This document shows, one piece after another, positions 13,411 through 58,587 of a stretch of DNA of 64,000 nucleotides. The notes under the pieces are model-generated. The model saw only the letters and a program-made list of their open reading frames with translations, had not been told where the DNA came from and made no database searches. The translations under genes were made by a program, and so were the position numbers. The number at the start of each line of letters is the position of its first letter. The stretch's first letter is position 1. This stretch comes from a virus. The stretch covers positions 27,283 to 91,282 of IMG/VR virus record IMGVR_UViG_3300042907_000878, one strand, 5' to 3'.

Positions 13411-13414
13411 GTCT

Positions 13415-13759
13415 TTACACTTCTTTATTTTGTGACTTGTCCCATCTCATCCAGCCACCATCAGGTAGCCACTTATCGTCCTTGTCTTTTCGTCTTGGAA
13501 ATAAACCTCCACCTTTTTTATGAACACCGAAAGCGAGTTTAGCTCGACACTCTCTGCTTGTACATCTAAGTTCATAATATTCATTTTCTTCTGCATCTTT
13601 ACGAACAACGTGACTCAATCCATCATATCCGCACTTTCCGCAAATTGAAATAGCAAAAACTTCTTCAAGGTCTGCTAATTGCTTAAAAGCGTCTGTCATC
13701 TTATCTGCTTCAACACTAATTGTAGAATTGCCAACCTTTTGTGAAATCGTAAAACTCAT
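13415..13759 (-). CDS. Zn-ribbon hypothetical protein
   Basis: CGKC and CxxxxC motifs; W/G/K-rich C-terminus; ATGA-coupled. Confidence 0.6.
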   Translation of the reverse strand: MSFTISQKVGNSTISVEADKMTDAFKQLADLEEVFAISICGKCGYDGLSHVVRKDAEENEYYELRCTSRECRAKLAFGVHKKGGGLFPRRKDKDDKWLPDGGWMRWDKSQNKEV

Positions 13760-19936: not shown

Positions 19937-21585
19937 TTATTAGTACCTATTTTTTGAATTCTCATTTGTTCCCATTGATTAAAAGCGTTTCTCATATATA
20001 AGCAGATATTAAAAGCTTTCTCAATATTAAATTCTTCGAATCTCTTTTCCACGTCTGGATGAGAGTAGTCATTATAATAATATCCGGGAATATTTAATGA
20101 CATTGAAGCACGATATGTCATGTCTTTTATCATTCTTCTCCACATTGACTTGTTAATTAGATCTGGCATTCCTAAAACATTCGTAAACAACCAATTCACT
20201 TGGTCAGTTACTGGGATTTGGTTTATGTCTTGAGGTAATGACTGATGGGGATTAAAGAATCTAGGTGGTGATTTCCAAGTTCTTGAATGGTCTAAAGTTG
20301 GCGTTTCTAAAAAATACTTTAACCATTTATTTGCTGTATAGTCCCAATTGTAAATTTTTCTGGCGTTGGCATGGCATCGATTTGCTACGTCATCTCTAAA
20401 GGATTTATCATTTGCAAGTTTGCCTAATATCTTAGCCAATTCATTGTTATCAGGAACCGCTCTAAAGCAACCTGTTTCAAGTTCTTTATAATAACTAATA
20501 GGATCGACTGGAATACCTTCTATGCTTGCCACTAATGATTCCATCGCTGAATAGTTAATGGACACAACTGGTAATCCCGCATATGCAGCTTCTAGCTGAG
20601 GCATACCCCAACCTTCCGAATTTGCCCATTGGATATACACATCAAATATATTGTATATTTTATTCAAATCAGTATCGGCCATCTTATTAGATACGCCAAC
20701 AATTGTAGATGAAAATATTTTACAATCATTGCAAAATTTAACAGCCTCATTAAAGAATGAAACAGTAATCTTACCGCAGTTCTTACACTTATAAGTAATT
20801 AATACTTTATTGCTAAGATTTGACTCTTTAATAAGATCTGGTATGTCCCAGCCAACATCTGGAAATCCTGTGTGGCAATACAAATAACAATTAGTTAATG
20901 ATGGGTTATCATCTAGAAATTTTCTAAACGCTTTAAATAAATCTGGATATAGTTTACGTCTTTGATTACGCATAACTGTTCCAAATATAATTGCGTTTTT
21001 ATCTAGTCCAAACTCTTCTCTAAGCGATTTCTTATCTTCTATTTTAAAGAAGGTTTCGCTAGCACAAGGAGATGCGATGTCTACAAATTTAATGTTATTG
21101 GTTTGAGCTAGCATTGTATCTCTACCAAACTCAGAATATGCAAAAACACCATCAGCAGATGAGTAAGTGTCGATCCATTGACTGTTTTGTGGTTCCGCAT
21201 CAACTGTTGGCATGATCGCCCAATTAAAAAATTCTCTAAAAGGAGACCTTTCTTCAAATTCTAGCATCCACCAATCACGAATATCCATAACGAAATCTGG
21301 CTCAAAGTCTAATAAAACGCTATTAAAAGCAAAGTCACCAAATTTATTCGACATTGACGAGTTATAATTATTCATCGCCTCTTGATTGGTTGCATCTGGA
21401 ATATTTGGATATACTTTCCAAGGTATATTCTTTAGTTCTTCTGGTTCAGGACCAGTAAAACATGCCAATTCAGCAACTTCAATCTCTGGATTTTTATACA
21501 ATCTACTAAGAACTTCTTTTGTATAAACCGAATAGCCAGTGGGGTGAAAGCTGGCTTCAGTCACAAATAAAACTTTTTTCTTCAT
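19933..21585 (-). CDS. Glycosyltransferase family 4 with Zn-ribbon insertion
   Basis: PTGYS, RNQRRK, EGWGMPQLEAAYAGLPVV; CKNC...CNDC insert. Confidence 0.88.
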   Translation of the reverse strand: MKKKVLFVTEASFHPTGYSVYTKEVLSRLYKNPEIEVAELACFTGPEPEELKNIPWKVYPNIPDATNQEAMNNYNSSMSNKFGDFAFNSVLLDFEPDFVMDIRDWWMLEFEERSPFREFFNWAIMPTVDAEPQNSQWIDTYSSADGVFAYSEFGRDTMLAQTNNIKFVDIASPCASETFFKIEDKKSLREEFGLDKNAIIFGTVMRNQRRKLYPDLFKAFRKFLDDNPSLTNCYLYCHTGFPDVGWDIPDLIKESNLSNKVLITYKCKNCGKITVSFFNEAVKFCNDCKIFSSTIVGVSNKMADTDLNKIYNIFDVYIQWANSEGWGMPQLEAAYAGLPVVSINYSAMESLVASIEGIPVDPISYYKELETGCFRAVPDNNELAKILGKLANDKSFRDDVANRCHANARKIYNWDYTANKWLKYFLETPTLDHSRTWKSPPRFFNPHQSLPQDINQIPVTDQVNWLFTNVLGMPDLINKSMWRRMIKDMTYRASMSLNIPGYYYNDYSHPDVEKRFEEFNIEKAFNICLYMRNAFNQWEQMRIQKIGTNK

Positions 21586-21941: not shown

Positions 21942-23534
21942 TTATATCTGAGTCACAATTTTAACAATAAAAGAAAGATCATTTTCCTTTTGTTTGATCT
22001 CTCCATATAATAGTACCGTATTGCCTTCAAAAAGCAACTTCTTGTATCGAGAAAATTCTTCAGAAAAAACCGTAATAGAATCAAGTTCACCTGAGCTATC
22101 TTCGGCAATTACAAATGCCATAAATTCGCCCTCATGCTGACCTCTTTTAAGTTTATATTCTCTAACTTGATTTATCTTCACTGCTAATTTGGCATCTTGC
22201 ATTTTTTTAACTTCACCATTAGCAATTTCTTTGCATGTGACATTTACATCATCCAAAGCAAGGTTGTCTGACTGTGAACAAGTCAAAGAACATCCCATAA
22301 GCTTCTGTTCAATATCTGCAATCCACACATAATCATCCTCAAGTGAATAAGGTGGATCTTGCAAAGCTTGATAGATATCTAACACAGAAGTAATCCTGCG
22401 AGAATTAATCTTATCGTTGTTGTTAATCATGAGATTAACTAAATCAATAAATGGAGAATTAGACATTCTGGAGCTTTTCCAATGAGATATGATCCACCCT
22501 TGCTCTTTGATAGTCAGCTTATTCCAAATATCAAATTCAAAGACCATTCTATTCCTGTTTAGCTTATTGTTCTTTCCCGTTAAGCCACCAACACTAATAA
22601 TAGAAATAAATGCATTCTTCTTGATCTCATTACCAATAAGAAATAAGCACTCCAACCAGTTAAACTCTTTAATTGATTTACCAGTGATATCCTCAGCTTC
22701 TTGCACAACTCTAGCTAGTGTTTCTTGCTCACCCTCTCCAACATTCTTGACATCGCTATATCCAAAGTATATGACGTTCTTAGCTCTATCCATTGTAAAG
22801 CGACGATAGAAGAAGTCAAGTCTAGGAGGAAGAACTTCAATTCCTTGAAGTTTAGCGTCCATAATCAACTCCTTAATCTCTCGCTGCTTATCTGGTTTAC
22901 TAGATGCATTATTTAGATATACAGTATAGAACTTAATTGGATCGTGTGTTTTACAATAAGCTGAAGCAAATGAATTGATAGCATATGCAACAGCGTGAGA
23001 TTTATTAAATGAATAGCGAGCAGATGCCGCAATCCATTCAAAAATCTTAGCTGCTGACACGTCATCTACTAATCCTTTAGTCTTAGACCCATTGATAAAC
23101 TTCTCTTCAACTTCTTTCATAAGTGCCGCATCTTTTTTACCCATAGCTTTTCTTAGTGAGTCAGCTTCTTCGGGTGTAAATCCAGCAATTTCTGTGGCAA
23201 TACGCATAGCTTGCTCTTGATAAACGATAATTCCATAAGTTTTACCCAGCACTGTTTCCAATGCTGGGTGTAAATATTTGGTTTCGTCAATCTTAGCTTT
23301 GCGATCTGTGTAGTGCTTGGTCATAGATTTGCCGTCTAATTCGGCCTCTAACGTACCGGGGCGAATAATGGATACCAAGTCAGCTAACTCGTCAATAGAG
23401 CGAGGCTGCGCCCTTTTTGCCCAACTGGAACCCAATCTGGACTCCAATTGAAAAACTCCCTTGGTTCTTCCGCTGCAAATCAGATCCCAAGTCGCTTCGT
23501 CGTCAAAATTTTTGATATCTTCAATATGAACCAT
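21942..23534 (-). CDS. dnaE: DNA polymerase III alpha, C-terminal chain (fingers, HhH, OB)
   Basis: GVFQLES, IIRPG, TYGIIVYQEQ, LRKAMGKK, YSFNKSHAVAY, VKNVG, MAFVIAED. Confidence 0.92.
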   Translation of the reverse strand: MVHIEDIKNFDDEATWDLICSGRTKGVFQLESRLGSSWAKRAQPRSIDELADLVSIIRPGTLEAELDGKSMTKHYTDRKAKIDETKYLHPALETVLGKTYGIIVYQEQAMRIATEIAGFTPEEADSLRKAMGKKDAALMKEVEEKFINGSKTKGLVDDVSAAKIFEWIAASARYSFNKSHAVAYAINSFASAYCKTHDPIKFYTVYLNNASSKPDKQREIKELIMDAKLQGIEVLPPRLDFFYRRFTMDRAKNVIYFGYSDVKNVGEGEQETLARVVQEAEDITGKSIKEFNWLECLFLIGNEIKKNAFISIISVGGLTGKNNKLNRNRMVFEFDIWNKLTIKEQGWIISHWKSSRMSNSPFIDLVNLMINNNDKINSRRITSVLDIYQALQDPPYSLEDDYVWIADIEQKLMGCSLTCSQSDNLALDDVNVTCKEIANGEVKKMQDAKLAVKINQVREYKLKRGQHEGEFMAFVIAEDSSGELDSITVFSEEFSRYKKLLFEGNTVLLYGEIKQKENDLSFIVKIVTQI

Positions 23535-23543
23535 TAGTTCCTC

Positions 23544-24251
23544 TTATATAGTAATATCCATAGGAGTATCTGCAAATGACTTCTCAAAATTAGTCTTAGA
23601 ATTTAACTTACGCTGATACTTCATAAATCTGACAAAGATATTTGCAGTGTCAACAACATCATAAATGGCATTGTGGGCATTTGCTTTACTCTCTTCGGGA
23701 AACCCAAAGAACTCTCTAAGATATCCCATGTTTAATTTCTTAACTGAGTCGTTATCTTCAAACCATCCAAACAATACATCCATCATGTCTACTTTATAAA
23801 TTTGATGGACTAACTTTTGCTTTCCGGTTTTTTCTTCAGATGGTCCATACATTTGACAATACCTATTTAAGATTGGCATATCGTAGTTATTGATATTAAA
23901 TCCTACAGGAATTGGGGCAAAGTATGGAGACCCCTTCATATTAAACTTAGTTACAAAGTTAGAGAACTGCTGCCAAGCAACTTTAGGCCCAACAGCTTTT
24001 TCCAATTGTTCGCGGGTTTTACGTGTTACATCAAGAGCTTCTTGTTCAACAGGATCAAATCCCGCTTTAATAGCTTTTTCATCATCAAACTCAGGTCGCA
24101 CTTCAATGTCAAACACTCCACCCGGCTGAAGTGTTAACTTCTTACCATGCAATACGATTGCTGATATTTGAGTTAGCTGACACTTATTAGGGTTTTTACC
24201 TGTAGTCTCAAAATCGAACACTAAAAAATCACGATTGCTGTTTAGTGACAT
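23544..24251 (-). CDS. dnaQ: DEDDh 3'-5' exonuclease (DnaQ/epsilon-like)
   Basis: VFDFETTG, GFNxxxYD, AHNAIYD. Confidence 0.88.
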   Translation of the reverse strand: MSLNSNRDFLVFDFETTGKNPNKCQLTQISAIVLHGKKLTLQPGGVFDIEVRPEFDDEKAIKAGFDPVEQEALDVTRKTREQLEKAVGPKVAWQQFSNFVTKFNMKGSPYFAPIPVGFNINNYDMPILNRYCQMYGPSEEKTGKQKLVHQIYKVDMMDVLFGWFEDNDSVKKLNMGYLREFFGFPEESKANAHNAIYDVVDTANIFVRFMKYQRKLNSKTNFEKSFADTPMDITI

Positions 24252-24462
24252 AGGTTTTTCTCAATTCTAAAAATTTATCAATAGCTTCATTTAGGTCGTA
24301 AAATATTTGTGAATACTTATTATTATGGACTTGGTATATTCCATTCTTCTTCTCTCTGTACCAAGGAACATGATTTCTTAGATCGGATAAGCTCAAATCT
24401 TTAAAGTCAATGTCATTACCATCCCTGATAACAGTTGCGTAGTCTAGAAATTTTTCCTTCAT
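24229..24462 (-). CDS. Hypothetical protein (77 aa) inside the split dnaE locus
   Basis: Fills the gap between dnaE-N and the exonuclease; tightly packed. Confidence 0.6.
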   Translation of the reverse strand: MKEKFLDYATVIRDGNDIDFKDLSLSDLRNHVPWYREKKNGIYQVHNNKYSQIFYDLNEAIDKFLELRKTYVTKQQS

Positions 24463-24463
24463 G

Positions 24464-25966
24464 TTAATCCTTCTCTGTAATCTGCATAATTTTATCTAGT
24501 AAGTTAATCCCAAGCACATCAAATTTAGTCAAACCAACCTTATCCAAGTCATGCATTTCAAATGCGACTAATCTATGACCATTCTTATCTGTGATAAGAG
24601 GTGCGTCATTGATTAGATCTTCATTAGAAATAATCACTCCTGCCGGATGTTTTCCTTGAGATTTATAAGTTCCTTCTATTCTTATAGCAAGAGAGAAAAG
24701 ATCTGACAACTCACCAGACAAATTGCCCTCCTTATCAATTCTACACCACTTTTCAAGTTTCTTTGGATCATTTTCAAGAGTCCATCGAATAACTGATTTG
24801 ATATCCATTTCTTCCAATTCATCTGAGATGCTAGCTTCTTGTGGTAAACTCTCAGTGATCTCATTTAACTCACTAAAAGATAAGTCCCCATAAACTCTAG
24901 CAACATCCTTGACTGCTGATCGACCTTGCAGACGCCCGAATGTAATCATCTGGTAAACTCTTTCATTGCCATACTTATTCTTGATATAGTCAATAATTTC
25001 ATCGCGGTGAACAGATGGAACATCCATATCAATATCGGGTAAAGAGATATTATCTTTAGTAAATCGGCCAGCGTTTAAAAATCTAGAGAATAGTAAATCG
25101 TATTTCAAGGGATCAATATCAATAATCCCAAGTAAATATGACACTAAACATCCACCAGCACTTCCACGTCCCGGTCCCGGTAGCCACTCATTCTTTCTTA
25201 CGAAGTTAATAATGTCTTGCACAATTAAAAAGTATCCAGACAGTTCAAATCCATGAATAACAGACAACTCGTACTTAATACGATCAGTATATTCCTTCTT
25301 CTTATCATCTTTTAAATGCATAAGTTTTGCTCGCCAACCATTTCTACATAACTGTGTTAGATAATCATTCTCAGACATATCTGCACAATCTACGCGAGGT
25401 AGTTTAGGCTTAGAAAGAATGCTATACTGTTGTAATTCAGAGTATAGTTGTTTAGTTCCAAAGTATTGCTTTTCGCTAGGTATAATCCTATGAACTGGAT
25501 GAAAGAAGTAATGATCAGACTCGAAGAACTTTTTATATTCTCCCATATCCACATCTTTAGCTCTCTTGAGTGTAGTTTTAAAGTTAAGACATAATACCAT
25601 CCTATGAAGAATTGCGTCATTTTGTTCAGCATAATAAACCGGCATAATTGCTAGTTGATCTTCTGTATAAAATTGCAAGTCTTCTTTGTCGTATTCTATC
25701 TTTTCTTTAGATGCTAACTTAATTAAAGCTCTATATCCTTTTAGAGATTTAGCAATATAATACCCATTATCGGCTTGCATTCCAAGAATGGGTACGATCC
25801 CAGCTTTATTCATGGCATTGAAGAAATCAACAACACCACTAATAGTTTCAATATCTGCAATTAAGCAATGTGTATAGCCTAATTCTTTACATTTTTTAGC
25901 GGCTTCATCGGGCTTGATGAAACCTTTCAATAATGAATAGTGTGTTGTTATTACTGGCAATATCAT
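24464..25966 (-). CDS. dnaE: DNA polymerase III alpha, N-terminal chain (short PHP, palm, thumb)
   Basis: HYSLLKG, GPGRGSAGG, LLFSRFLN, PDIDMD, HPAGVII, KFDVLG. Confidence 0.92.
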   Translation of the reverse strand: MILPVITTHYSLLKGFIKPDEAAKKCKELGYTHCLIADIETISGVVDFFNAMNKAGIVPILGMQADNGYYIAKSLKGYRALIKLASKEKIEYDKEDLQFYTEDQLAIMPVYYAEQNDAILHRMVLCLNFKTTLKRAKDVDMGEYKKFFESDHYFFHPVHRIIPSEKQYFGTKQLYSELQQYSILSKPKLPRVDCADMSENDYLTQLCRNGWRAKLMHLKDDKKKEYTDRIKYELSVIHGFELSGYFLIVQDIINFVRKNEWLPGPGRGSAGGCLVSYLLGIIDIDPLKYDLLFSRFLNAGRFTKDNISLPDIDMDVPSVHRDEIIDYIKNKYGNERVYQMITFGRLQGRSAVKDVARVYGDLSFSELNEITESLPQEASISDELEEMDIKSVIRWTLENDPKKLEKWCRIDKEGNLSGELSDLFSLAIRIEGTYKSQGKHPAGVIISNEDLINDAPLITDKNGHRLVAFEMHDLDKVGLTKFDVLGINLLDKIMQITEKD

Positions 25967-45183: not shown

Positions 45184-45578
45184 GGATTCACCTGAATATA
45201 TTGTACTTGGGGTTGTACTTGAGGCTGAGTTGTCTGAACTGGCGGCTCTTCTTTTGGTTTACATTTACATACGCCGCCATCTTTTGAACATTGACATTTG
45301 AGCTTATTGCCGTCTGCCTGAACTATTTCGCCAGTCCCATTGCATTTACATGCGATTTCGGGGGCTGGAGGAGCTGGCTTTGGCACATTTTCCTTTTTAA
45401 TATTTTTCTTTTCTGTAGTATCTAAAATACTATTAACTCTCTCAACTTCTTTTTTTAGATCTGATTGAATGTCTCTAGATCCATATGCTTGAGATTGTTT
45501 ATCTGCTACATTATATTCGCTATAACTATAGCCAATAATTAGTCCAATCCCAAGAGCTACCACACTTTTTAAATTCAT
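45180..45578 (-). CDS. Membrane-anchored Cys-rich protein
   Basis: N-terminal TM; CKCNGTG...CQC...CKC; start reassigned to 45578. Confidence 0.6.
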   Translation of the reverse strand: MNLKSVVALGIGLIIGYSYSEYNVADKQSQAYGSRDIQSDLKKEVERVNSILDTTEKKNIKKENVPKPAPPAPEIACKCNGTGEIVQADGNKLKCQCSKDGGVCKCKPKEEPPVQTTQPQVQPQVQYIQVNP

Positions 45579-46513
45579 GCGAAAATCTCCTTCACTCTTG
45601 TCCAATCCATCTTGCGTTTAAAGCCATTGAAGTTGCTATAGGCAAATGTTGCTCCAGCACCGATCATGCCCTCGGCAACCTTTTGTCTAACCCAGAAACT
45701 TCCATCTGGTTGTTCATACCACTTAGGACCACTATTCCAAAGACCCCAGCTATTTTGAACTAGGAATAGCATTTCATTAAATCTCTCGTAAGTGTCATCA
45801 CATGCAATTAGTGTCATTGCGTGCGCCCAACTACCTTGAGGTTCAGCTATTCCATTCTTATCTCTGTGAGAAGAGAATCCATAGTTAGAGCAAACAGATA
45901 AAGCATATCCATTAGCCAATAAGTCTCTAGCTTGCTCAACGCTATTTACAGTTGTTACTGTAGTGATTTTATGCTCTGCACATTCTTTGATAACTGGTTC
46001 TGGAATGCCTCTGCCGCCCCAGTTCATTCCTATTTTAGCATTGTACGTGGATAAGTCAATGCCGAGTTTTTCATATTTTTGACGGAGTAAGAATCCACCC
46101 GTCACACTCACAAATCTTGCGGCTTGTGAACAGTGCATTCCTTGGCCGCTAGACCCCCTAGACCCGTAGATTGGTTCAGTAGCACCTCTAGCAACAAAAG
46201 ACTCTTTCTCTTTACCATAGAGAATCTCATAAGCTCTAGTGATGTCCACAGCATTACGTGTTGCATGGCTAACGCAGTCGCCAGTAGTTTGTGATTCATC
46301 TCCTCCAAAGGAAGGAAAGAAATATTGAATTGCTTTGTATGGCAAAGATAAAACACCTTTTCCTGTGCCATACAATAGTTGATCGCCAACATCTCCAAAT
46401 AGTGGATGCGGTAATTCATCCATAAGTTTTAACATATCTACTGGATCACATACCGCGCCTTGCAATCCATTATTGTATTGTTCTAAAAGTTCTTCTGGAC
46501 TATTAAATTCCAT
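45575..46513 (-). CDS. Papain-like (C1 family) cysteine peptidase
   Basis: QxxGDCV (oxyanion Gln and catalytic Cys), WAHAM (His), QNSWG (Asn). Confidence 0.85.
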   Translation of the reverse strand: MEFNSPEELLEQYNNGLQGAVCDPVDMLKLMDELPHPLFGDVGDQLLYGTGKGVLSLPYKAIQYFFPSFGGDESQTTGDCVSHATRNAVDITRAYEILYGKEKESFVARGATEPIYGSRGSSGQGMHCSQAARFVSVTGGFLLRQKYEKLGIDLSTYNAKIGMNWGGRGIPEPVIKECAEHKITTVTTVNSVEQARDLLANGYALSVCSNYGFSSHRDKNGIAEPQGSWAHAMTLIACDDTYERFNEMLFLVQNSWGLWNSGPKWYEQPDGSFWVRQKVAEGMIGAGATFAYSNFNGFKRKMDWTRVKEIFA

Positions 46514-48012: not shown

Positions 48013-48041
48013 AAAAAAAGAGTCGCCCAAAAGGACGACTC
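48013..48041 (-). terminator. Intrinsic terminator after the DUF1559 gene
   Basis: gagtcgtcc-tttt-gggcgactc followed by T7. Confidence 0.88.
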
Positions 48042-48063
48042 ATATTTATTAACTTTTGTTATA

Positions 48064-49188
48064 TCAATAAGAATCGGCTGAGATAACTTCGTTGCCAGCT
48101 CGCGTAATCAAAGCTCTGACAATCGCTGCATTTGTTGTATCTTTAACAAATCTCACAGATCCATCTGTCATTGCCATGTTAGCTCCACCGGGATGCCATG
48201 AGAAGATCTCATTATTTGGGCCGCAGTCATGAATACCCCAGTCATTAGCACCACAGCTTGGCTTGCCAAATCCACCAGTTTTATTGTTGTTGATAACATT
48301 TGAAACGCCAGCAGCATTGTCAGGATCGCCCCATCTCCATGAGCGACGAGCGCCCTGAACGTAAGGAGCGGGAGCATTCAAGTCAGGAGCGTAATCGGTT
48401 GTTGGAGAAGCATAGTTACCAACACCTTGCATCTTTGGGCTGCGACCAGTGTCTTCATAAAACATAGCAGTGTTAGATGTGCCATCTGTCGTTGCACCAA
48501 TCGTTGCTCCACCCTTATTAATATCGACTGTTCCATCCAAAACTTTTGCTGGGTCGATTTGATAAATCTTACTAGAGGAGCATACTGTACATCCATACGC
48601 TTTATAAGCAGATGTGCCATAAGCATTGCCAGTCAATGATCCGGGAGCTGGTGTTGGCCCAACATAACCCGCTTGCCACTTTGTAGTGCCATCGGGCATG
48701 ATCTCAGTATAAGGAGCTGTTGCATAGTCAATACAACCAAATCCAATACTATCGCGTCCATTCTGTCGATCACTTTCAAGTGCGTTTGTTGGACACAAGA
48801 ATGCGTTAATCACTGTTGCACTTGCAGTTACATTACCAGAAAAATTATATGGTAGTTGCAAGTTAAGCTGATTATAAACATTACCCTGTTCAATACTCCC
48901 AAGGATCATTGTGAATGCACTATGATAATCCTGCGTCTTATAAGTTGTGCTGCCGACTGTTACATTATGCTCTCCAGAGCGTGGAAATGTGCCTTGGGCG
49001 TTTTCAAAATTATGCGCGGCCAAAGCTAACTGTTTGAGGTTGTTCGTGCATTGCGCTCGCCTAGCTGCTTCTCTAGCTGATTGTACTGCTGGAAGTAAGA
49101 GTGAGATAAGCACTGCGATAATGGCAATAACCACAAGCAGTTCAATAAGGGTAAAACCACGACGATTAGCATTTTGTGTTTTGATCAT
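48064..49188 (-). CDS. DUF1559 prepilin-type protein (N-methyl-Phe leader, H-X9-DG C-terminal motif)
   Basis: RRG|[42 protein letters not shown]; FLCP; TDGTSNT; [19 protein letters not shown]. Confidence 0.95.
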
Positions 49189-49217
49189 TTTTATTTTTCT
49201 CTCAAGTGTTTAAAGAA

Positions 49218-49242
49218 GAAGGACACCAACGTGATGTCCTTC
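49218..49242 (-). promoter_or_regulatory. 5'-leader hairpin
   Basis: gaaggacatca-cgt-tggtgtccttc (11 bp, one G-U) a few nt after the predicted start site. Confidence 0.6.
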
Positions 49243-49252
49243 GTACTCAATT

Positions 49253-49281
49253 ATTATAACCGGCTTCAACCCCATTGTCAA
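49253..49281 (-). promoter_or_regulatory. Perfect-consensus sigma70 promoter for the DUF1559 gene
   Basis: TTGACA-17 nt-TATAAT. Confidence 0.88.
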
Positions 49282-49290
49282 GTTAAGATT

Positions 49291-50016
49291 TCATGAAGAT
49301 TTTTGATTTTTGTTGAACAAGAATAGATCTTCGATCTCATTATAGTTCATTCCTTCAAATTCTTCAATGGATCTGCTCACTGGAACATCCGCTCTGCCTC
49401 TCATGACCTTTTCCATATATTCATGTTTTGTTTTACAAACATAATGATTTAACTGCACTACGTCATCAGTTCCATTGTGATTGAACGGTCCAGTTCCAAA
49501 ATTTCCATTTGTATCTTTCCATTGTACATTTGCATGATGCGGATTTATCATTGAAATGTTAGGTTCAAGCTTTATAATGGATTTAATATGTTCATTTACT
49601 TTTTTTTGTCTCATTTTAAATCTATTAATTAAACTATTATTGTTTGGATCATAATCTTCTATAAAATTATTTCCAAAAAATATCCAATTAATGGCTAATG
49701 AGTGAGTATCAAATCCATATTCATATATAAAATCTTTAATATTTGAATGTTTTTTCAATACTAAAAATTCATCAATGTCAAAAAAAGCGGCCCAATCATA
49801 AGATAGGCCGTAGTTTTGTATAAAATGATTATATGCATACCCTTGCTTGCATTCCCCATCGCATGGTATTTTTAACATTGAGCTGTCATTTATATTTGAT
49901 CTATAATTATTCTCGTATAAATATATTTGATCAAATCCTAATTTTTTATAATGATCAATCCATTCTTTTAAATATTTGTCTTCATCTTTTGCGATTGCAA
50001 CTAACGCCAATTTCAT
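49291..50016 (-). CDS. Glycosyltransferase (GT2_4/GT92-like)
   Basis: AIAKDExxYLKEWIDH, FFDIDEF, KSII, LNHY. Confidence 0.82.
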   Translation of the reverse strand: MKLALVAIAKDEDKYLKEWIDHYKKLGFDQIYLYENNYRSNINDSSMLKIPCDGECKQGYAYNHFIQNYGLSYDWAAFFDIDEFLVLKKHSNIKDFIYEYGFDTHSLAINWIFFGNNFIEDYDPNNNSLINRFKMRQKKVNEHIKSIIKLEPNISMINPHHANVQWKDTNGNFGTGPFNHNGTDDVVQLNHYVCKTKHEYMEKVMRGRADVPVSRSIEEFEGMNYNEIEDLFLFNKNQKSS

Positions 50017-50017
50017 A

Positions 50018-50290
50018 TTATTTTTGAGCCTCTTTTAGAGCTTTTGGATCTGGTCGATCAGGATCGCCCATTTTTGCTGGCTTGTAATTTTTACCCATCT
50101 TTTCTTTTTTCTTTTGAATATTTTCCCAAAGCCCCGGTTTATCCCCAGCTTTTAGAATTGAATTTTTTTCGTCTGGGTCTGGTTCGCCTTCTCTGCGACC
50201 CGCAGTCGGTGGATCGTATTTTGGATAATTAACTGGTTTTTTTTCAGCTTCTGCGTATTCATTCATTGCTTCTAAATAATTCTTTTTCAT
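50018..50290 (-). CDS. Small basic protein (GLWENI motif), putative head-internal protein
   Basis: K/P-rich; KPGLWENIxKK motif; AGGAG RBS. Confidence 0.5.
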   Translation of the reverse strand: MKKNYLEAMNEYAEAEKKPVNYPKYDPPTAGRREGEPDPDEKNSILKAGDKPGLWENIQKKKEKMGKNYKPAKMGDPDRPDPKALKEAQK

Positions 50291-50298
50291 ATCTTCTC

Positions 50299-50937
50299 CT
50301 AGTTATGTATAAAAAGGTAATTGTTGATCTTTATGATGTCATTTCTATCTACTGACTTTCCGATTTCTTCTACTAATTTTCCATCGGCCTCGAAGCAGTC
50401 ATCGCTTAAATCGAAATCAAAATTTTTTATAATATTTTTATTAAAAAATAAACAACCTAAGTCAACACGTGATTTAACAAAATGCGTTTCTAGTATTCCC
50501 CATCTATTATGACTTGATATCATATTTGAAAATACAATCTTTTTGTTGTATTCTTGTGCTGTTGCTATTAATGATTCAAATGCAACTGGAACATAATAAT
50601 TATCATCATTTGTATATATAAGCCAATCAAAATTTTCATCAATAAAAGCATATTTTTTTCTATGCGGATATCCAAATTTACCAAGTTTATTTTCTGTTTG
50701 AATAATTTTAATTCTATTATCTAATTCAATAAAATTTAATAAACTCGTTTTCTCTTCGCAGTCATTTATTGGACCGTCATGAACGATTATTAATTCAAAA
50801 TTTTCATACGTCTGAGCCAATACGCTACTTATAAATGATTTGCAATACTTATATCTTTTTTTATTATCATTAAGATACGAAGCAGCCACAATTCTTATTT
50901 TTTCTTTTCTTATGCTCAAGCTTTCCCAATATCTCAT
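50299..50937 (-). CDS. Glycosyltransferase family 2
   Basis: SVLAQTYENFELIIVHDG, TNDDNYY. Confidence 0.85.
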   Translation of the reverse strand: MRYWESLSIRKEKIRIVAASYLNDNKKRYKYCKSFISSVLAQTYENFELIIVHDGPINDCEEKTSLLNFIELDNRIKIIQTENKLGKFGYPHRKKYAFIDENFDWLIYTNDDNYYVPVAFESLIATAQEYNKKIVFSNMISSHNRWGILETHFVKSRVDLGCLFFNKNIIKNFDFDLSDDCFEADGKLVEEIGKSVDRNDIIKINNYLFIHN

Positions 50938-51608
50938 TTATTATTCCTGCTAATTAAAAAATTTCCGTGAAAGCCAAATGACTTATCTTTCATTTCTGGC
51001 ACGGGACGCTCTATAGAAAAATTTGCGGCAGTTTGTGGATCTGCAAATTTTACACCTCTGTCAATAAATTCCTTATAATATATATTACACGATAAGAAGT
51101 CTTCATTGACCGATATATCGTATACGCTCCTATTTAAACTGGTGTTAAAATTAAAATCTTTAAAAATACTATACGATGTTTTTAGAAATTTCTTTGACTT
51201 TAAGCAGAACCCCCCGTTTCCAACTCTATTTTTATAACCCCATTCAATAGGCCAAGGAGCGCCGATGTAATCAGATTCTAAAAATTTATCTGTCCAACAC
51301 TCTGGATTAATTATATATCCATCATGCTGGATTGTCAAGCAGAAATCTGTGGGAATATATTTATTTAAATCTACCAAACAGAATTTTGAATATTCAGCTT
51401 TATTTTTTATAATTGGTATTCTAAATATTTCTAGATTAACACTAGAAAGATTTTTAAACCTATTGATATTTATATCTTCTATGTCATCTGTAAAAAAATA
51501 ATATTTATCAAAATATATATTTTCTATTGATTTATCTAGAGCAATTAAAGCTTCTATTTTATTTTTTGTATCTATGCAACAAATAGATATAGTCATTTTA
51601 TTCTCCAA
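50934..51608 (-). CDS. DUF5672-like glycosyltransferase
   Basis: IQHDG, DYIGAPW, VGNGGFCL, NED, FGFH. Confidence 0.8.
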   Translation of the reverse strand: MENKMTISICCIDTKNKIEALIALDKSIENIYFDKYYFFTDDIEDININRFKNLSSVNLEIFRIPIIKNKAEYSKFCLVDLNKYIPTDFCLTIQHDGYIINPECWTDKFLESDYIGAPWPIEWGYKNRVGNGGFCLKSKKFLKTSYSIFKDFNFNTSLNRSVYDISVNEDFLSCNIYYKEFIDRGVKFADPQTAANFSIERPVPEMKDKSFGFHGNFLISRNNK

Positions 51609-52329
51609 TTAATATATTATCGTAATATTTTGTTTCATTTTTATAACTATCTCCATCTACATATCCAATCTCGCATACAATATTTTTCATCAATGCGTAA
51701 GCTATTGCCATGGGAGCCGAGAGATTTCCACAGAATAAACTGCATGAATTTATAATTTCAAATAAATTTTGTATATTATCTATATATAATGACTGTACTA
51801 AATTTTTATGTGGAAAATTTACATATTGATTTACGTCTGTATATATAAAAAATGAATTTTCTTTTCCATGTTCATGTATATATTTTATATATAAATCATT
51901 TGCTGAATGTCTTCTATAGTCTAAGCTTCTGTTAATTATTAGAGAATTATTATATTTTTTAATATTTTTGATGTTTTTTATAATTTGAAAATTTCTTATA
52001 TTGAAATTTGCGCTTTGTAAATATATCGATGATAACTTTTCAGTCCAACACAATTGGGGATTTTCATTTCTCCAAAATGATAGATTAAAATTTATGTTTT
52101 GATTATTGTATATTTCAAATGTGTTTATATATTCTTGTTTAGATATAATATCATGCAATTCATTAAAAGTATTCTCTAGACCAAATGAAAAGTGATCTCC
52201 AATTTCAGATATATATAAATTAGTTTTAATGTTGTATACATTATATATAATAGCAGGTATATATAGTTGATGTATAAAATCTCCGAGCTTTCCCCCGGAG
52301 ATCATGTTTAAGGTTTTATTACTTTCCAT
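51598..52329 (-). CDS. GT9-like glycosyltransferase
   Basis: GKLGDFI and LFCGNLSAPMAIAYAL; start reassigned to 52329. Confidence 0.6.
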   Translation of the reverse strand: MESNKTLNMISGGKLGDFIHQLYIPAIIYNVYNIKTNLYISEIGDHFSFGLENTFNELHDIISKQEYINTFEIYNNQNINFNLSFWRNENPQLCWTEKLSSIYLQSANFNIRNFQIIKNIKNIKKYNNSLIINRSLDYRRHSANDLYIKYIHEHGKENSFFIYTDVNQYVNFPHKNLVQSLYIDNIQNLFEIINSCSLFCGNLSAPMAIAYALMKNIVCEIGYVDGDSYKNETKYYDNILIGE

Positions 52330-52570
52330 ACATTTTTGTTGAACCTTGGTTATAAAGCTTTTGAGGTTTGCCAGATATGACAAGCTGATTGATTTCTTGA
52401 TCAATCTCTTGAATTAAGTCGTTCCTTTGTTGGTTTGCCACATTGGTTACTTTTGTCGCCTTTGCAATTTCACCATCTGTTGCTACTGGATTTCTTTTAA
52501 TGTCTTCACACATCCAGATACGAATATTTACTACAGTCAATTTATCAATTAAATTTCCTATTGTTTCCAT
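52319..52570 (-). CDS. DUF4254-like protein
   Basis: ETIGNLIDKL...IWxxED...NQQRNDLIQEID. Confidence 0.7.
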   Translation of the reverse strand: METIGNLIDKLTVVNIRIWMCEDIKRNPVATDGEIAKATKVTNVANQQRNDLIQEIDQEINQLVISGKPQKLYNQGSTKMYGK

Positions 52571-53505
52571 TATATAGTCCTGTCTAATATTGATTTAGTT
52601 TGATTTTTTATATTTTCATATGAATTTATATATGTGGTATTAATTTGTTCCTGATATTTTTCAAAATTATGGTATATTTCAGTTAGTGTAGTTTCTGGAT
52701 ATATTGAAAGCTCTGGAGCAAAAGATCGAAACATATTTGATCCTGTAATTAGTACTGGTTTTTGAGCTGATACTAAGTAATCTAGAGATGATGATATGCC
52801 AACATCTTTTTCCGCTTCATAGAATAAGCAGTTTATATCATTTTCATTTAGTTTATTAATTACTTCATACTCAGATAAAAAATTAGTTGTTATGTTTAAT
52901 TTGATTCCGGGCTTAGTGATTGCATTGTAACACGCTCTAATTACATTTCCAGTTTCATTTATTCCATCAAAATATGCTTTGGGCATATGGAAGTTAATGA
53001 TGGCTTTGTCAAAACAATCATTGACATGACGCACTATTCTATCAAAAAATTTATGACCAAGAGCAAAGCCAAAACTTCCAATCGTTGGAATAGCATTTTT
53101 TTGTGTGCTGTTGTTATAATAGGCAGAAAGAGGTCTATCAGTTTTAAAGCAACAATTATTTTCTAAAGAAAATTTATCTAGTATTATATAGTAGTTAAAA
53201 ATATTATCATTTCTAAATGTTTCTAAATTATTTTTACTAAATAAGTGAGGAACGCAGAATTTTATACATTTATATTTATTAATTTCTTCATTTACCCAAG
53301 GTAAAGTCATATGCATATAATTGAATATAACTGCATCTGGATTGTATTCTTGACATATATTAAAAAATGAGGATATATCATTTAATTCTGCATATATCAT
53401 ATTATAATTTTCAATTTCTTGTATTGATATAAAATGGCGCAGACCTAGATCATAAACTCCACAAGCTTTTGTAATTCCATGATTTATATATAATACTGTT
53501 TTCAT
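52570..53505 (-). CDS. GT-B-fold glycosyltransferase-like (paralog A)
   Basis: IGSFGF, ITKPGI, SAQKPVL; similar to the next gene. Confidence 0.65.
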   Translation of the reverse strand: MKTVLYINHGITKACGVYDLGLRHFISIQEIENYNMIYAELNDISSFFNICQEYNPDAVIFNYMHMTLPWVNEEINKYKCIKFCVPHLFSKNNLETFRNDNIFNYYIILDKFSLENNCCFKTDRPLSAYYNNSTQKNAIPTIGSFGFALGHKFFDRIVRHVNDCFDKAIINFHMPKAYFDGINETGNVIRACYNAITKPGIKLNITTNFLSEYEVINKLNENDINCLFYEAEKDVGISSSLDYLVSAQKPVLITGSNMFRSFAPELSIYPETTLTEIYHNFEKYQEQINTTYINSYENIKNQTKSILDRTI

Positions 53506-54401
53506 TGGATAATACTTTCAAACTTTTTACAAAAATTGATAGGAGACCAATCCTCATTCATATCAAGAACTCCTTTGTGATTTTGCTGTATAGCGTCCTT
53601 TAGTGATATGTCTGGGTATGGCTTTATATATTTAAGTAAATGTCTAAATGTTGGATTTTTAGTTGTCAGGATTGGTCTTTTTGCTGATATGGCCTGATCT
53701 GTTACCGCTGCTAATCCATGCATATTTCTGTAATATGGAAAATAATTAATTGTATTTCTAGAACACCATTTAACAAGTTGCTCTTTATCCATATAGTTAT
53801 GTGTTAACTCGATCCTAATTCCCGGCTTTGTAATGTGTGATTTTATATCGGATATAATTTTCTGCGTCCTTTGCCATGAATCAGTCACATATGTAGCAAA
53901 AGGAATATTTATTTTTACTACTGCATTGTCAAAATTCTGTTGAGCCAGTTCTATTATTTCGGTCCAATTCTTGCCATCGGTTGCAAAGCCAAAACTTCCT
54001 ATAATTGGATACCCGCGATCAATATAAGTATCCGTCTCATAATTTTCAATCGGCCTTGGGAACCCATATATATTATCGTTATCTGGGATTGTTGGATCAA
54101 TCACTATGTAGCCATCGAATATTTTTGGGGTTAATGGCATTATATCATCGCCTTGTCCGACTTCAAGAACAATGCAATATTTTTTTCCTTTAAAATTAGA
54201 TAAGATGTCAGTTGTCATCCAGTTGTTTACTGCGACATGCTGATTAAAAACTGCAAAGTCATAATCCAAATGTAAAGAATTTTCTTCTGTATAATCTAGC
54301 ATGTATTTTATTGATTGATTAAGCGCGTTGTAGCACATTAATCCCGACTCATAAATGCTGCACTGCGCTTTTTTTGAATTGTAAAAAATTCCTCTTATCA
54401 T
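53502..54401 (-). CDS. GT-B-fold glycosyltransferase-like (paralog B)
   Basis: IGSFGF, ITKPGI, SAKRPIL; likely start MIRGI. Confidence 0.65.
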   Translation of the reverse strand: MIRGIFYNSKKAQCSIYESGLMCYNALNQSIKYMLDYTEENSLHLDYDFAVFNQHVAVNNWMTTDILSNFKGKKYCIVLEVGQGDDIMPLTPKIFDGYIVIDPTIPDNDNIYGFPRPIENYETDTYIDRGYPIIGSFGFATDGKNWTEIIELAQQNFDNAVVKINIPFATYVTDSWQRTQKIISDIKSHITKPGIRIELTHNYMDKEQLVKWCSRNTINYFPYYRNMHGLAAVTDQAISAKRPILTTKNPTFRHLLKYIKPYPDISLKDAIQQNHKGVLDMNEDWSPINFCKKFESIIQ

Positions 54402-54402
54402 T

Positions 54403-55173
54403 TTATCTCTCAATCATATTTTGTCTTATTGGTTGGTGAATTAAATCTGTTAATGCGGTATGAATTATTCCCATTTTTGTCATCATTTCATATACTAAAG
54501 TTTCGCTACAAAATATTTTATCTACATTATTTACATCATTTACAATTCTTTGAATATAATTGAATGCACTCGCATATATATTCATATTTTCACTTGATGA
54601 AAATCCAAACCAATCTTCTATCATCCTAGGAGGAAGGGTGTGAATTTTTTTGTCTGTCCATAAAATATTTTTGTCATAATTGGCGCATATAATTGATCTA
54701 CTTAGTGTTGAATCAAATCTAGCTCTAATGACATAATCATATTGTATATCATTTTCAAGTCTATATTCTTCTTTTAACATGTTACATTTCATTATGCTTA
54801 GCCATGAGGAGTAAATCATATTTACAAAATAATCTCTAGAGTAATGCCTAGCATTATCTGTTGTTAATATATGATCCAGCGGTATAACTGAATCCTTTAT
54901 GACTTTCTGATTCTCAAAAAGATATTTTTTTGGTTGATATAATTTTGTGATTATTTTATCTACATGTGGAGGATATTTACTATTTTGGCTTGAGTAATTC
55001 CATCCATTTGCCCACTCTGCGTAGTTTACAAACTGCTGTCCAATTAACGATTCATCATACCAAGAATGCACAAAAACATCTGCATTATTAGGATCAATCA
55101 GTGTATTTTTAATATTTTGATATGCATATTCTACAAATCTAGGTTGTCCTGAAATACAAAGCGCGACTTTCAT
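54403..55173 (-). CDS. Putative glycosyl/glycosyl-phosphate transferase (ALCISGQPR family)
   Basis: MKVALCISGQPR, DVFVHSW, YDYVIRARFD, DWFGF. Confidence 0.7.
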   Translation of the reverse strand: MKVALCISGQPRFVEYAYQNIKNTLIDPNNADVFVHSWYDESLIGQQFVNYAEWANGWNYSSQNSKYPPHVDKIITKLYQPKKYLFENQKVIKDSVIPLDHILTTDNARHYSRDYFVNMIYSSWLSIMKCNMLKEEYRLENDIQYDYVIRARFDSTLSRSIICANYDKNILWTDKKIHTLPPRMIEDWFGFSSSENMNIYASAFNYIQRIVNDVNNVDKIFCSETLVYEMMTKMGIIHTALTDLIHQPIRQNMIER

Positions 55174-55985
55174 TTGTGGTATCGACTCCAATATTTATAA
55201 CACTTCAAAAGATCTTCTTCATTTTTTACCTGAGTGGCTTTTATAATTGTAGACCACGCTTCAAAGTTTTCCACTTCATCCGGCGTTCCAAAAACAGAAA
55301 CAAATGGTGTATCATAGTATCCAACTTTTAGCCCGTCTTTAATTAATAGATTATAAGTTAAAGTTACGTAATATTCTCCGTTATGATTAATATTTTGCTG
55401 GACCGTTTCGTTGAAATACTTTTTTACATATTTACCTTTGCTAAAATAGTAAACGCCTGTAGAAGCATGTTCACTCATTGGATTGTTTGTATAACACTCT
55501 TTTTCTTTTATTTCTGACACAATTCCATCCGACTCTTTTAGGAATGCCATTTTTGTACTAGCAAGTGTGTGCGGGTGGAATCCAGTGTGAGTTAAAATAC
55601 ATCCATCCAAATTATTGTCTTTGACATGCCTATTAAAATCCTCTCTATCCCATAAATGTGGATTATCGCAATATGATACTATAACTTCTTCATTGTCATT
55701 TATAAACTCATAAGCCTGTTGAACAGTATATATTGGTCCAAATTTGTGCTGCTTCATAGAAACTATTGATGCATCAGGTCTTAAGGAATTTAATATTGAC
55801 CTCATGTCTGTTTCTTCAAGATGTCTGTCGTTACATATAAAAACTATCTCATCACCTTCATTAAACATATCTAGGATATATTCAATAATCCTTTTGCTAT
55901 TAACTTTAATAAGAGGTTTTGGATCTTTATATCCACGCTCTACAAATCTATTTCCTGATCCAGCCATTGGAATAATAATTTTCAT
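55170..55985 (-). CDS. Sugar-phosphate nucleotidyltransferase
   Basis: IIPMAGSGNRF...PKPLI, YCD, EK, GVYYF, NGEYYV, FGTP. Confidence 0.85.
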   Translation of the reverse strand: MKIIIPMAGSGNRFVERGYKDPKPLIKVNSKRIIEYILDMFNEGDEIVFICNDRHLEETDMRSILNSLRPDASIVSMKQHKFGPIYTVQQAYEFINDNEEVIVSYCDNPHLWDREDFNRHVKDNNLDGCILTHTGFHPHTLASTKMAFLKESDGIVSEIKEKECYTNNPMSEHASTGVYYFSKGKYVKKYFNETVQQNINHNGEYYVTLTYNLLIKDGLKVGYYDTPFVSVFGTPDEVENFEAWSTIIKATQVKNEEDLLKCYKYWSRYHK

Positions 55986-57382
55986 TTGGCTACCTTTCTC
56001 ATTTTTTCCGCTGTCATATTATTTAATTTATTGATTTCTTCATCACTTAGAAATTTTGGAGTTAGATTGCAAGCGGTCATCATTTGAAATATATTTTTAT
56101 TTATATCTTCCATTTCTTCCTTTAAAACTGCCGCATCTGGGAATAATGGTTTTATTCCAGTATTTATTTCTGAACTGATTAATGGTTGGCTATTTTTGAT
56201 TAGCCATTCTTTACATTTTTCATTGACTAATTCTGTTAATAAAAATGCTCGTTCTGATGTTTCTGATCCAATAATTAAACCATGATTTTCTAAAAATATA
56301 ATTTCTCTGCCTATATTTATTTTATCAATTAACTCAAATCCCGGAGTGGTATACTCTACAAAATTAAATTGAGAATCTTTAAATAAATCAGATATTATAT
56401 CTTTACTTTCTTGACTGCACAGTATTGCATTTAAATGTATTGGATGTGTGTGACATACTATTTTAGATTTTATTTTTAAGTGAAATCCAGTTTCCATTGA
56501 CGGATTATTTTTGCCACCTCTTTTAAGATTTGATATGTATGTCATATATTCATTTTCATTCCTGAATATTGGTAATATTTCTGGTATATTACAAACACAA
56601 TATCCATTTGATAAGCTAATATCTGACATTCTAGATCCTGAAGATTTAATAATTAATCCATTGTTGGTTTTTCTGGATATATTTCCACCTTTATCTTGTA
56701 CGATTGCTGGATCTAATGATATCTTTCGGCATAATTCAATAAAATCTATAGTAGACTCATAAAATATATCTAGTTTTTGAATAATTTCTTGAGCTGATTC
56801 GCTTAAGTTATTATTTATATAACTAGGAACAACTTTTCCATTTATCTTTTTAAAAGTGATAATTATATCAGCATTATTTTTTTGAGGCTCTATGTATTTT
56901 AGTTCATCTTCTTTTCTAATATTTATATTTTTTAAAACTTGTTCTTTTGTATATCCTCTTTCGTGAGTGTCTCTTGTTATTTTCCACTCTTTCTTTAATT
57001 CTTCATCTGTTTCAACAAAAATATTTAGATTAGATATATTAGCGACTGGTTCATAAAGAGCGTGTAGCCCCACGTATATTATATACTGTTTAGGATATAT
57101 TTCTATAGGCTCATCAAATTTACCAGTAGTATGATTATATAAAGATCTTTGTATTGAAGATCCTTTCATTAAATCTCTTATATGAATATAGCCTATTTCT
57201 AAGTTATTTGAATCTGGATTAAGATGTGTTTTATTTTTCCAGTGATGACTATTTCTTTTCCACTTATGAAGATCATCCCCGCTTAGATACAGGGATTGAT
57301 CTTCACCTAAAATATATTGTAATAATTTAGCTACAGTGGTTTTTCCAACTCCAGAGCTGCCAGATATGCATATTAAATTCAT
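55982..57382 (-). CDS. Phosphoribulokinase-like kinase fused to class II aldolase/epimerase
   Basis: GSSGVGKTT, DDLH, YNHTTG, GLH, then GGNIS, PSMETxFH, HTHP, LENHGL. Confidence 0.85.
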   Translation of the reverse strand: MNLICISGSSGVGKTTVAKLLQYILGEDQSLYLSGDDLHKWKRNSHHWKNKTHLNPDSNNLEIGYIHIRDLMKGSSIQRSLYNHTTGKFDEPIEIYPKQYIIYVGLHALYEPVANISNLNIFVETDEELKKEWKITRDTHERGYTKEQVLKNINIRKEDELKYIEPQKNNADIIITFKKINGKVVPSYINNNLSESAQEIIQKLDIFYESTIDFIELCRKISLDPAIVQDKGGNISRKTNNGLIIKSSGSRMSDISLSNGYCVCNIPEILPIFRNENEYMTYISNLKRGGKNNPSMETGFHLKIKSKIVCHTHPIHLNAILCSQESKDIISDLFKDSQFNFVEYTTPGFELIDKINIGREIIFLENHGLIIGSETSERAFLLTELVNEKCKEWLIKNSQPLISSEINTGIKPLFPDAAVLKEEMEDINKNIFQMMTACNLTPKFLSDEEINKLNNMTAEKMRKVAK

Positions 57383-58587
57383 GATTCTATTATTTCAAAT
57401 TTTGGACATGGGACAATGAATTTACCTCCGCACTGTAAAAAGTTCTGTTCTCTTTGAATGAACTCATTAATGAAATGCCAAGGTAGAACAAGCATATAAT
57501 CTGGAGGATTTTGTCTCATTTCTTCTTCCGAGATAATAGGAATATTTGTTCCTGCTGTATATAATCCAAATTTATACGGGCTACGCTCAACTAATTTTTG
57601 AACCAGTCTTGAATCAATACCAAAGTATTGAAGCAGCGTGTTGCCTTTAGTAGATGCCCCATAGCCATAAACTGTCTTTCCTTCAGCCCGTGCAGACTCA
57701 AGAAATTTAACGGTTTCATCTTTAAGATCATTAATTCTATTGAAAAAATGAATCCATGTATTTTGGTTATCTAATTCAAGTGTTTTTTCATATGCAAGTA
57801 AGGATTGTACATTAAAATCGTAGACATCTCTCTTTTGTTGATTTGCAAACTTTTTAACATCTGCAATATCTTTTACTGCATACACTCTAAAGCTTCCACC
57901 GTTAACATCGTTCAATTCGCAATTAAGAATCTTAAACCCATTTCTTTCGAAAATTTTCTTAATGTTGAATAGCGAGTAATAATACATATGCTCATGGCAG
58001 ATATTATCAAATGCTAATTGGTTAATCATCAGAGGAGTATAGGACATTTGCACGACCCATATTCCATTATCATCAAGTACATCGTACACATCTTTTACAA
58101 ACTTATCTGGATTTGGAACGTCATAAAACATTGCGATTGTAGTAACTACATCGGCTTTGAAATTTTCCGGTAGAACTTCTTTTGAAAAGTAATCTTGGAT
58201 AATTGTCGCATATTTACTAGATTCATTTTTAAAAGAGTCGTCTGCTGGATCAACACCATATTTTTTATAATTATTTGGAACTTGAGAAAGTAGAGTTCCA
58301 TCGTTACATGCAATATCCAGCCAAGTTTTTTCTCCTTGGTGATTTACAATGTGTGTGATATCGTCCACTATCTTTTTAAGCTCATTCTTCATTGTTTGAT
58401 TAGTGCCAGACCGATACCAATATTTCCCCCACATGGTATCGCATGGTGGCTGTTCCGATAACCTTACAGCTCCACTATCCTCTTCCAAGACAAGTTTTAG
58501 TTCATATTTTTCAATCGGGTTTTTTAGCTGATCCTCTGTTAAAAAATCAGAAACACATATCTTTCCTAAGCTAAATAATTCAATCAC
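57379..58587 (-). CDS. NDP-sugar C-methyltransferase family protein
   Basis: YWYRSG, DIACNDG, FDNICHEH, GGS, YGASTKGNTLL, LPWHF; GTG start. Confidence 0.88.
   Translation of the reverse strand: MIELFSLGKICVSDFLTEDQLKNPIEKYELKLVLEEDSGAVRLSEQPPCDTMWGKYWYRSGTNQTMKNELKKIVDDITHIVNHQGEKTWLDIACNDGTLLSQVPNNYKKYGVDPADDSFKNESSKYATIIQDYFSKEVLPENFKADVVTTIAMFYDVPNPDKFVKDVYDVLDDNGIWVVQMSYTPLMINQLAFDNICHEHMYYYSLFNIKKIFERNGFKILNCELNDVNGGSFRVYAVKDIADVKKFANQQKRDVYDFNVQSLLAYEKTLELDNQNTWIHFFNRINDLKDETVKFLESARAEGKTVYGYGASTKGNTLLQYFGIDSRLVQKLVERSPYKFGLYTAGTNIPIISEEEMRQNPPDYMLVLPWHFINEFIQREQNFLQCGGKFIVPCPKFEIIES

Follow-up and report, generated by a model that had tools for sequence, protein, structure and literature searches.

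A prepilin-like DUF1559 gene of a large freshwater phage derives from Isosphaeraceae and carries a predicted Pho box

The window analyzed here, a 64,000-nucleotide stretch of the IMG/VR virus record IMGVR_UViG_3300042907_000878, encodes a DUF1559 protein with a prepilin-type N terminus that the phage acquired from its planctomycete host clade. We hold with middling confidence, giving the idea about an even chance, that this is a host-derived auxiliary gene of the Pho response, i.e., a helper in phosphate scavenging analogous to the pstS gene of cyanophages. Three independent signals point to phosphate acquisition: the phages have kept the gene under strong purifying selection, the host copy is found beside pstS-pstC, and a Pho-type box is shared between the two. 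If this is true, it would extend Pho-controlled phage phosphate genes from marine cyanophages to freshwater planctomycete phages, with a pilin-like protein as the cargo.

The gene, an open reading frame at 48064..49188 on the minus strand, encodes a DUF1559/H-X9-DG prepilin-like protein of 374 amino acids, here called P0001. Its match to PF07596 (DUF1559, also SBP_bac_10) scored 147.7 bits against a cut-off of 23.3 (E 8.8e-43) and covered positions 1-266 of the 268 in the profile, and its N terminus was matched above cut-off by PF07963 (N_methyl; 36.4 bits, E 3.2e-9) and by TIGR02532 (32 bits, E 7e-8). The class III signal recognized by these two profiles (49141..49188, minus strand) reads RRG11|F12TLIE16; a short basic leader, M1-G11, ends in the glycine of the predicted cleavage site G11|F12, E16 occupies position +5, and a hydrophobic helix of about 20 residues follows. 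Among 77 homologues, F12, L14, and E16 are invariant. Toward the C terminus, the motif H332...D342 G343 (48160..48195, minus strand) lies within the match to TIGR04294 (H-X9-DG; residues 329-349, 40.4 bits against a cut-off of 19, E 1.5e-10), with H332 and G343 invariant among homologues and D342 conserved in at least 90% of them. The Pfam and NCBIfam matches thus bear out the original prediction of a complete DUF1559 protein with an intact class III signal and the H-X9-DG motif.

In structural comparisons, the protein resembles pilin cores only weakly. The AF2 model of P0001 (pLDDT 86) has a long N-terminal helix formed by residues 14-65, and the top matches to this model in VIA-align (wide) were all pilins or pseudopilins, at weak Z scores of 2-4, over residues 36-352 approximately and with a large insert. 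Against the GspG equivalog profile TIGR01710, P0001 scored 38.5 bits, below the cut-off of 88.85, and over residues 10-72 only. When the model was compared with the PDB by Foldseek, nothing was found below E 0.001 and the N-terminal helix alone was matched; likewise, a sequence search of the PDB with P0001 returned pilin N-terminal helices only. Because PDB, Foldseek, and VIA-align recognized no fold in the insert of about 240 residues, it gives no clue to a ligand. Among phages, tblastn of P0001 against GenBank phage sequences found no homologue. The match to the PHROG 3433 family "pilin" was confined to the first 50 or so residues (E 2.5e-6), and none of the PHROG profiles covered the DUF1559 domain. 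P0001 resembles phage pilins or pilin-like morons, such as PHROG 3433, in its phage-encoded prepilin N terminus but differs from them beyond it, its DUF1559 domain being outside the PHROGs.

The phage nature of the window is evident from a split DnaE-type polymerase, rIIA, a ribonucleotide reductase (RNR), a primase, a DnaB-like helicase, and UvsX. The IMG/VR record comprises 91,282 bases and is estimated to be 61% complete, and a relative with 98% identity is a record of 155,259 bases rated 100% complete. No GenBank phage has a polymerase more than 36% identical to that of the window, which indicates an uncultured lineage; the source is a large freshwater phage of this uncultured lineage, whose genome size is about 155 kb. 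The polymerase region itself (21942-25966, minus strand) consists of two open reading frames, matching PHROG 405 at positions 242-609 and 625-1070, that are separated by another gene.

The DUF1559 gene is present on at least 14 independent contigs of IMG/VR, which stem from different samples, always as a single copy at the same position and with 75-100% identity. Between diverged phage clades, the neighboring genes are 42-77% identical and the pilin gene is 75-77% identical. Pairwise dN/dS values among the phage copies range from 0.02 to 0.12, with dS reaching approximately 2-3, and the cellular copies fall in the same range; selection on the gene is thus purifying and not relaxed. No other prepilin gene was found in the phage genomes that carry it. 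In addition, an A24 prepilin peptidase was found neither in the window's record nor in the complete 155-kb relative, whereas each host genome contains one or two, so that the phage protein must rely on the host prepilin peptidase, as had been proposed.

We then traced the gene to its cellular relatives. The database search gave a block of sequences with at least 69% identity, beyond which identity fell to about 54% in Paludisphaera and Tautonia. The possibility that this block is wholly phage was ruled out by cellular copies in seven Isosphaeraceae genomes. These seven genomes (3.4-6.4 Mb), out of 121 of the family, hold a copy 75-79% identical to the phage gene in loci with a GC content of 0.48-0.60, and 7 further Isosphaeraceae genomes hold copies with 54-59% identity. 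The copy of Paludisphaera soli (L105) is 57% identical. A scan with generic N-terminal patterns, which returned mostly paralogues of 30-35% identity, was used only to reach the Isosphaeraceae genomes. In a maximum-likelihood tree, 7 verified phage copies and 12 database rows, the latter counted as phage by their tree position and five shared diagnostic residues only, formed a single clade of 19 rows (SH-aLRT 99). The diagnostic states, V78, S80, Q107, Y209, and a one-residue deletion, are common to 19 of 19 rows. This clade is nested in a 37-row clade together with cellular copies (SH-aLRT 100), and its sister group is L108/L110/L109. Placed in a tree with cellular copies, much as originally suggested, the phage copies thus constitute one clade within the Isosphaeraceae orthologues, and these relationships fit a single capture from a subgroup of the Isosphaeraceae (Planctomycetota) followed by vertical descent in the phage.

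The captured protein has changed little. At least 90% of the cellular copies agree at 219 columns. The phage copies leave 190 of these (87%) unchanged and systematically replace only 3, and the phage protein shows no truncation compared to the host orthologues; it is therefore a faithful orthologue. The findings also supply a host assignment for the uncultured lineage of approximately 155 kb. Separately, positions 1-20000 of the window were compared with five host genomes for CRISPR spacers or prophages, yielding one 36-nt match with 86% identity (E 0.058) and no repeat array nearby; as a host link, this match was treated as chance.

Beyond this orthologue group, at least 241 stretches in IMG/VR are related to P0001. 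Dozens of them (L168-L230) are paralogues of 28-46% identity on contigs of 50-355 kb with 31-41% GC and GC3 values of 0.17-0.30, and capture of DUF1559 genes by planctomycete phages seems to have been recurrent, with several acquisitions. At one of these loci, L173, a TCTTCAC-N6-TTCAT box precedes the DUF1559 copy by 76 nt. DUF1559 ranks first in size among the paralogous families of many planctomycetes, with 74 copies in Rhodopirellula baltica (PMC2754498) and 68 in Planctopirus limnophila (PMC10632474). Our literature search found no paper that names DUF1559 together with phage, and a study that mentions Planctomycetes phages (Kavagutti et al. 2019; PMC6802176) does not mention pilins or DUF1559. 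The earlier statement that no phage system like this had been described agrees with the literature found, but the number of DUF1559-like stretches in IMG/VR shows that the gene is not an isolated case among viruses.

The link to phosphate emerges from the host genomes. In two of them (G108 and G109), the orthologue is directly followed by pstS (PF12849, E 1e-29 and 1e-34) together with a pstC-like gene, and in a third (G107), it adjoins a phosphoesterase gene of PF04185. In four host genomes, ATCTTCAC-N2/3-AT(T/A)(C/T)TTCA(C/T) stands before the operon that comprises an alpha/beta-hydrolase gene, pstS, and pstC. This motif lies about 8 nt upstream of a -10 element, TATATGAT, with no -35 element, i.e., the classical arrangement of a Pho box. 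It is the alpha/beta-hydrolase gene (PF00561) that heads the pstS-pstC operon (L119-L122, L150, and L151) and carries the box. Searches with TCTTCAY-N6-TTCAY gave 7-11 matches per host genome, compared to 0-1 for a reversed control. This pattern precedes the DUF1559 orthologues of G111 and G112, and the same repeat is present upstream in G113; upstream of the G107 orthologue is CCTTTCATGAAATCTTGAC, which is nearly the phage sequence. The full box is absent at the orthologues L109, L112, and L113. In two host genomes, the motif also precedes phytase-like genes of PF13449. As the repeat is enriched and is found before the pstS operon and the phytase-like genes as well, we regard it as a predicted Pho box, and on these sequence grounds the host orthologue is predicted to belong to the Pho regulon.

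Other genes stand behind the motif too. These include genes for beta-propeller proteins, phosphoribosyl pyrophosphate (PRPP) synthetase, and an SSF symporter, along with genes that are not obviously phosphate related, namely, an EF-G paralogue, a rhomboid, a DUF2975 protein, and a methyltransferase; because of the latter, the regulator could be another protein of the OmpR family. The EF-G paralogue carries the Pho-type box upstream in three host genomes (L125, L129, and L141 in G111, G107, and G112) and would be an unexpected conserved member of the regulon.

The phage gene carries its own version of this box. Two direct repeats with 11-bp spacing, AATCTTCAT-GA-AATCTTAAC, occupy 49282..49301 (minus strand) and abut the -35 hexamer of the promoter. 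Compared with the host pattern TCTTCAY-N6-TTCAY, the window's box has one mismatch, its second half-site being TTAAC instead of TTCAY, and the exact host pattern is present in the phage contig L006 and in the clade of L007, L008, L009, and L012. Across three phage clades, the 20-nt stretch upstream of the -35 hexamer is nearly invariant, AATCTTCAT(G/A)AAATCTT(A/C)AC; the box, -35, and -10 elements are all conserved, and it is the 17-nt promoter spacer that diverges. We also considered AATCTT-N5-AATCTT as a general promoter element of the phage, but this was rejected since its sole exact copy in the 64-kb window is the one at the predicted Pho box.

Directly downstream of the box lies a sigma-70-type promoter, TTGACA-17-TATAAT (49253..49281, minus strand), that matches the consensus at 12 of 12 positions and whose -35 and -10 hexamers are invariant or nearly so in the relatives. 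Promoters with at most one mismatch number 8 in the window compared to 1.7 expected, and none of 100 shuffles reached 8; the phage therefore evidently uses host sigma-70-type promoters, and the consensus promoter would predict strong expression of this gene. With perfect -35 and -10 elements, the promoter should fire without an activator. Moreover, the distance from box to -10 is about 14 nt greater in the phage than in the host pstS promoters, which makes control of the phage copy by PhoB uncertain, and Pho boxes identified in silico in phage genomes have been found unreliable when tested (PMC10976474).

The transcription unit is bounded on both sides by RNA structures. The leader contains an 11-bp hairpin with a U-rich tract (49218..49242, minus strand; -15.9 kcal/mol, z -4.2) that a terminator scan scored as terminator-like, and its structure is kept with a different sequence, through compensatory changes, in L006 and L009. 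The hairpin probably blocks read-through from the upstream glycosyltransferase island, or caps the mRNA at its 5' end, or does both, and it may protect that end. Downstream of the gene is an intrinsic terminator (48013..48041, with the hairpin at 48041..48020, minus strand) with a 9-bp stem and a T7 tail (-16.5 kcal/mol, z -6.5), and a terminator of differing sequence is located 3' of the gene in every relative. The perfect promoter, the 5' hairpin, and the dedicated terminator of the original prediction are therefore all confirmed. Its description of the gene as an autonomous expression unit applies to the clades of the window and of L006 but not to the L007/L009/L012 clade, in which a 252-aa HNH-like open reading frame intervenes between the same promoter and hairpin and the gene. 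In the L009 clade, the cassette of box, promoter (TTGACT-16-TATAAT), and hairpin is intact, and the insertion of this frame explains the apparent lack of a promoter. The inserted Cys-rich/HNH-like frame, located at 7250-8008 on the plus strand of L009 and present also in L007, L008, and L012, looks like an insertion of a homing endonuclease into the leader; the DUF1559 start codon in these contigs is GTG.

How would such a gene act? In the mechanism we propose, an ancestor of the phage captured one DUF1559 gene from an Isosphaeraceae subgroup, once, along with its upstream response-regulator box. The box would have been retained as the promoter turned into a perfect sigma-70 consensus and the unit became insulated by the leader hairpin and the terminator; if so, an "autonomous expression unit" of a phage can be an inherited host regulatory cassette with its promoter upgraded to consensus. 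During infection, host RNA polymerase would transcribe the gene, and under phosphate scarcity host PhoB might enhance this transcription. The prepilin would then enter the inner membrane, be cut by the host prepilin peptidase at G11|F12, and join a pseudopilus or pilus-like machinery of the host, replacing or supplementing the host copy. As a result, phosphate capture or phosphatase export would be sustained while the phage DNA replicates. We infer PhoB binding, processing, assembly, and the benefit in phosphate supply for the phage copy from the features described above. A bolder version of the proposal is possible, and we advance it only tentatively, judging it somewhat doubtful: the orthologue group might be a dedicated fiber subunit of phosphate starvation, either a pseudopilus or a retractile pilin, that exports phosphatases or presents or docks PstS-type binders at the planctomycete envelope, and phages might have made of it a new class of phosphate auxiliary genes wired to host PhoB; if so, a DUF1559 protein would gain its first function accessible to experiment.

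Several known systems can be set beside this proposal. Cyanophage genes are under the control of host PhoB via Pho boxes (PMC10976474), and the cyanophage pstS and phoA genes resemble the gene described here in being host-derived phosphate-starvation genes of large, lytic-type phages with a host-type box upstream (PMC10976474); their habitat, too, is often phosphorus limited. They differ in cargo, which in cyanophages is a transporter subunit or a phosphatase and here is a prepilin-like DUF1559 protein for a planctomycete host, and in architecture, as the cyanophage Pho box replaces the -35 element, whereas the predicted box described here lies upstream of a full consensus promoter. A second parallel is Hxc, a Pho-regulated type II secretion system of Pseudomonas that exports the phosphate-scavenging proteins LapA/Psp (PMC2225411). 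In Hxc, which has pseudopilins of its own, as proposed here, proteins of the pseudopilin type are linked with both the Pho regulon and phosphate scavenging outside the cell (PMC2225411); Hxc, however, is a complete and dedicated secreton operon, whereas the phage has a single pilin-like gene with no secreton genes adjacent. Finally, the DUF1559 paralogues of planctomycetes have in common with P0001 the N-methylation motif, the DUF1559 domain, and the H-X9-DG tail; they form a family without an assigned function, whereas the phage-encoded copy is one of a narrow set of orthologues whose context is phosphate uptake.

The gene might instead be a conserved envelope moron that serves some other function of a DUF1559 fiber, such as polymer capture, adhesion, or secretion for lysis or release, with the box being a relic or the binding site of another regulator. 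We consider this unlikely, although a number of observations speak for it. The motif precedes non-phosphate genes as well, the perfect sigma-70 promoter makes activation dispensable, many unrelated DUF1559 paralogues are found in other low-GC viral contigs, and DUF1559 paralogues of Rhodopirellula baltica respond to several stresses (PMC2754498). A relic, however, does not sit well with a box that is better conserved than the promoter spacer between clades whose synonymous sites are saturated, nor does a function unrelated to phosphate with the adjacency to pstS in two host genomes, the phosphoesterase neighbor in a third, and a motif that, at the pstS operon, is placed like a classical Pho box.

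The original prediction favored another explanation, which we regard as improbable, namely, superinfection exclusion or receptor remodeling: the phage pilin would enter or compete in the host pilus or pseudopilus, so that the receptor fiber is changed, masked, or jammed. In such a scheme, the neighboring glycosyltransferases might glycosylate the pilin. In favor of this explanation, phage-encoded proteins that disable type IV pili are known. The class III signal means that the protein must enter the host pilin pathway, the promoter is strong and of a constitutive type, and the gene adjoins a hypervariable glycosyltransferase island. This island (49291-58587, minus strand), which precedes the pilin gene, contains glycosyltransferase and DUF5672 genes and, in the window as in L004-L012, shows hypervariable gene content between conserved bounding genes. 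Yet the island varies between relatives and the pilin gene does not; thus, the two are not a fixed module. Conservation of 87% of the host-conserved positions at full length, with no dominant-negative features, is likewise not what a blocking protein suggests, exclusion offers no obvious role for the conserved Pho-type box, and the context of the host orthologue is phosphate uptake and not a pilus operon. Because the phage protein is a faithful copy, the box is retained, and the host context points to phosphate, exclusion is less favored, and receptor blocking or pilus jamming gives way to the Pho-response reading as the leading interpretation, with the shared regulatory motif pointing in the same direction.

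Base composition is also compatible with a long residence in the phage. The GC3 of the gene is 0.33, compared to 0.26 ± 0.05 (maximum 0.40) in 38 other genes of the window and 0.49-0.80 in the host orthologues. The codons are thus phage-like, as claimed earlier, and this ameliorated GC3, the synteny across diverged phages, the low dN/dS, and the single phage clade together uphold the view that the gene has long been domesticated. Its total GC of 0.44 is above the 0.30-0.35 of its neighbors, with codon positions 1 and 2 at 0.50; the raised local GC results from an amino acid composition rich in Gly, Ala, and Pro. The GC content of the phage, 0.34, is far below the 0.48-0.60 of the proposed hosts. 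An assembly chimera or cellular contamination of the viral contig, to which the GC of the gene relative to its neighbors might be attributed, is rejected and has next to no probability, given that independent assemblies, the complete 155-kb genome included, show the same synteny and that the GC excess resides at codon positions 1 and 2 while GC3 is phage-like.

Downstream of the pilin gene lie a PHROG-2072 gene, a GT1 glycosyltransferase gene, a gene for a papain-like protein, and genes for small membrane proteins. The papain-like protein (45575-46513, minus strand) has 312 amino acids and Cys, His, and NSWG motifs of the papain type, with no match in Pfam or PHROG; together with the subsequent small membrane proteins, it is kept in all relatives, and the group may be a noncanonical lysis cassette. 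At the junction between the pilin unit and the PHROG 2072 gene (48014-48063, minus strand), a TATAAT-like box precedes the pilin-unit terminator and the ribosome-binding site (RBS) of the PHROG 2072 gene follows directly after it. The order of -10 element, hairpin, U-tract, and RBS recurs in the window, L006, and L007 and may represent a general punctuation of transcription units in this phage.
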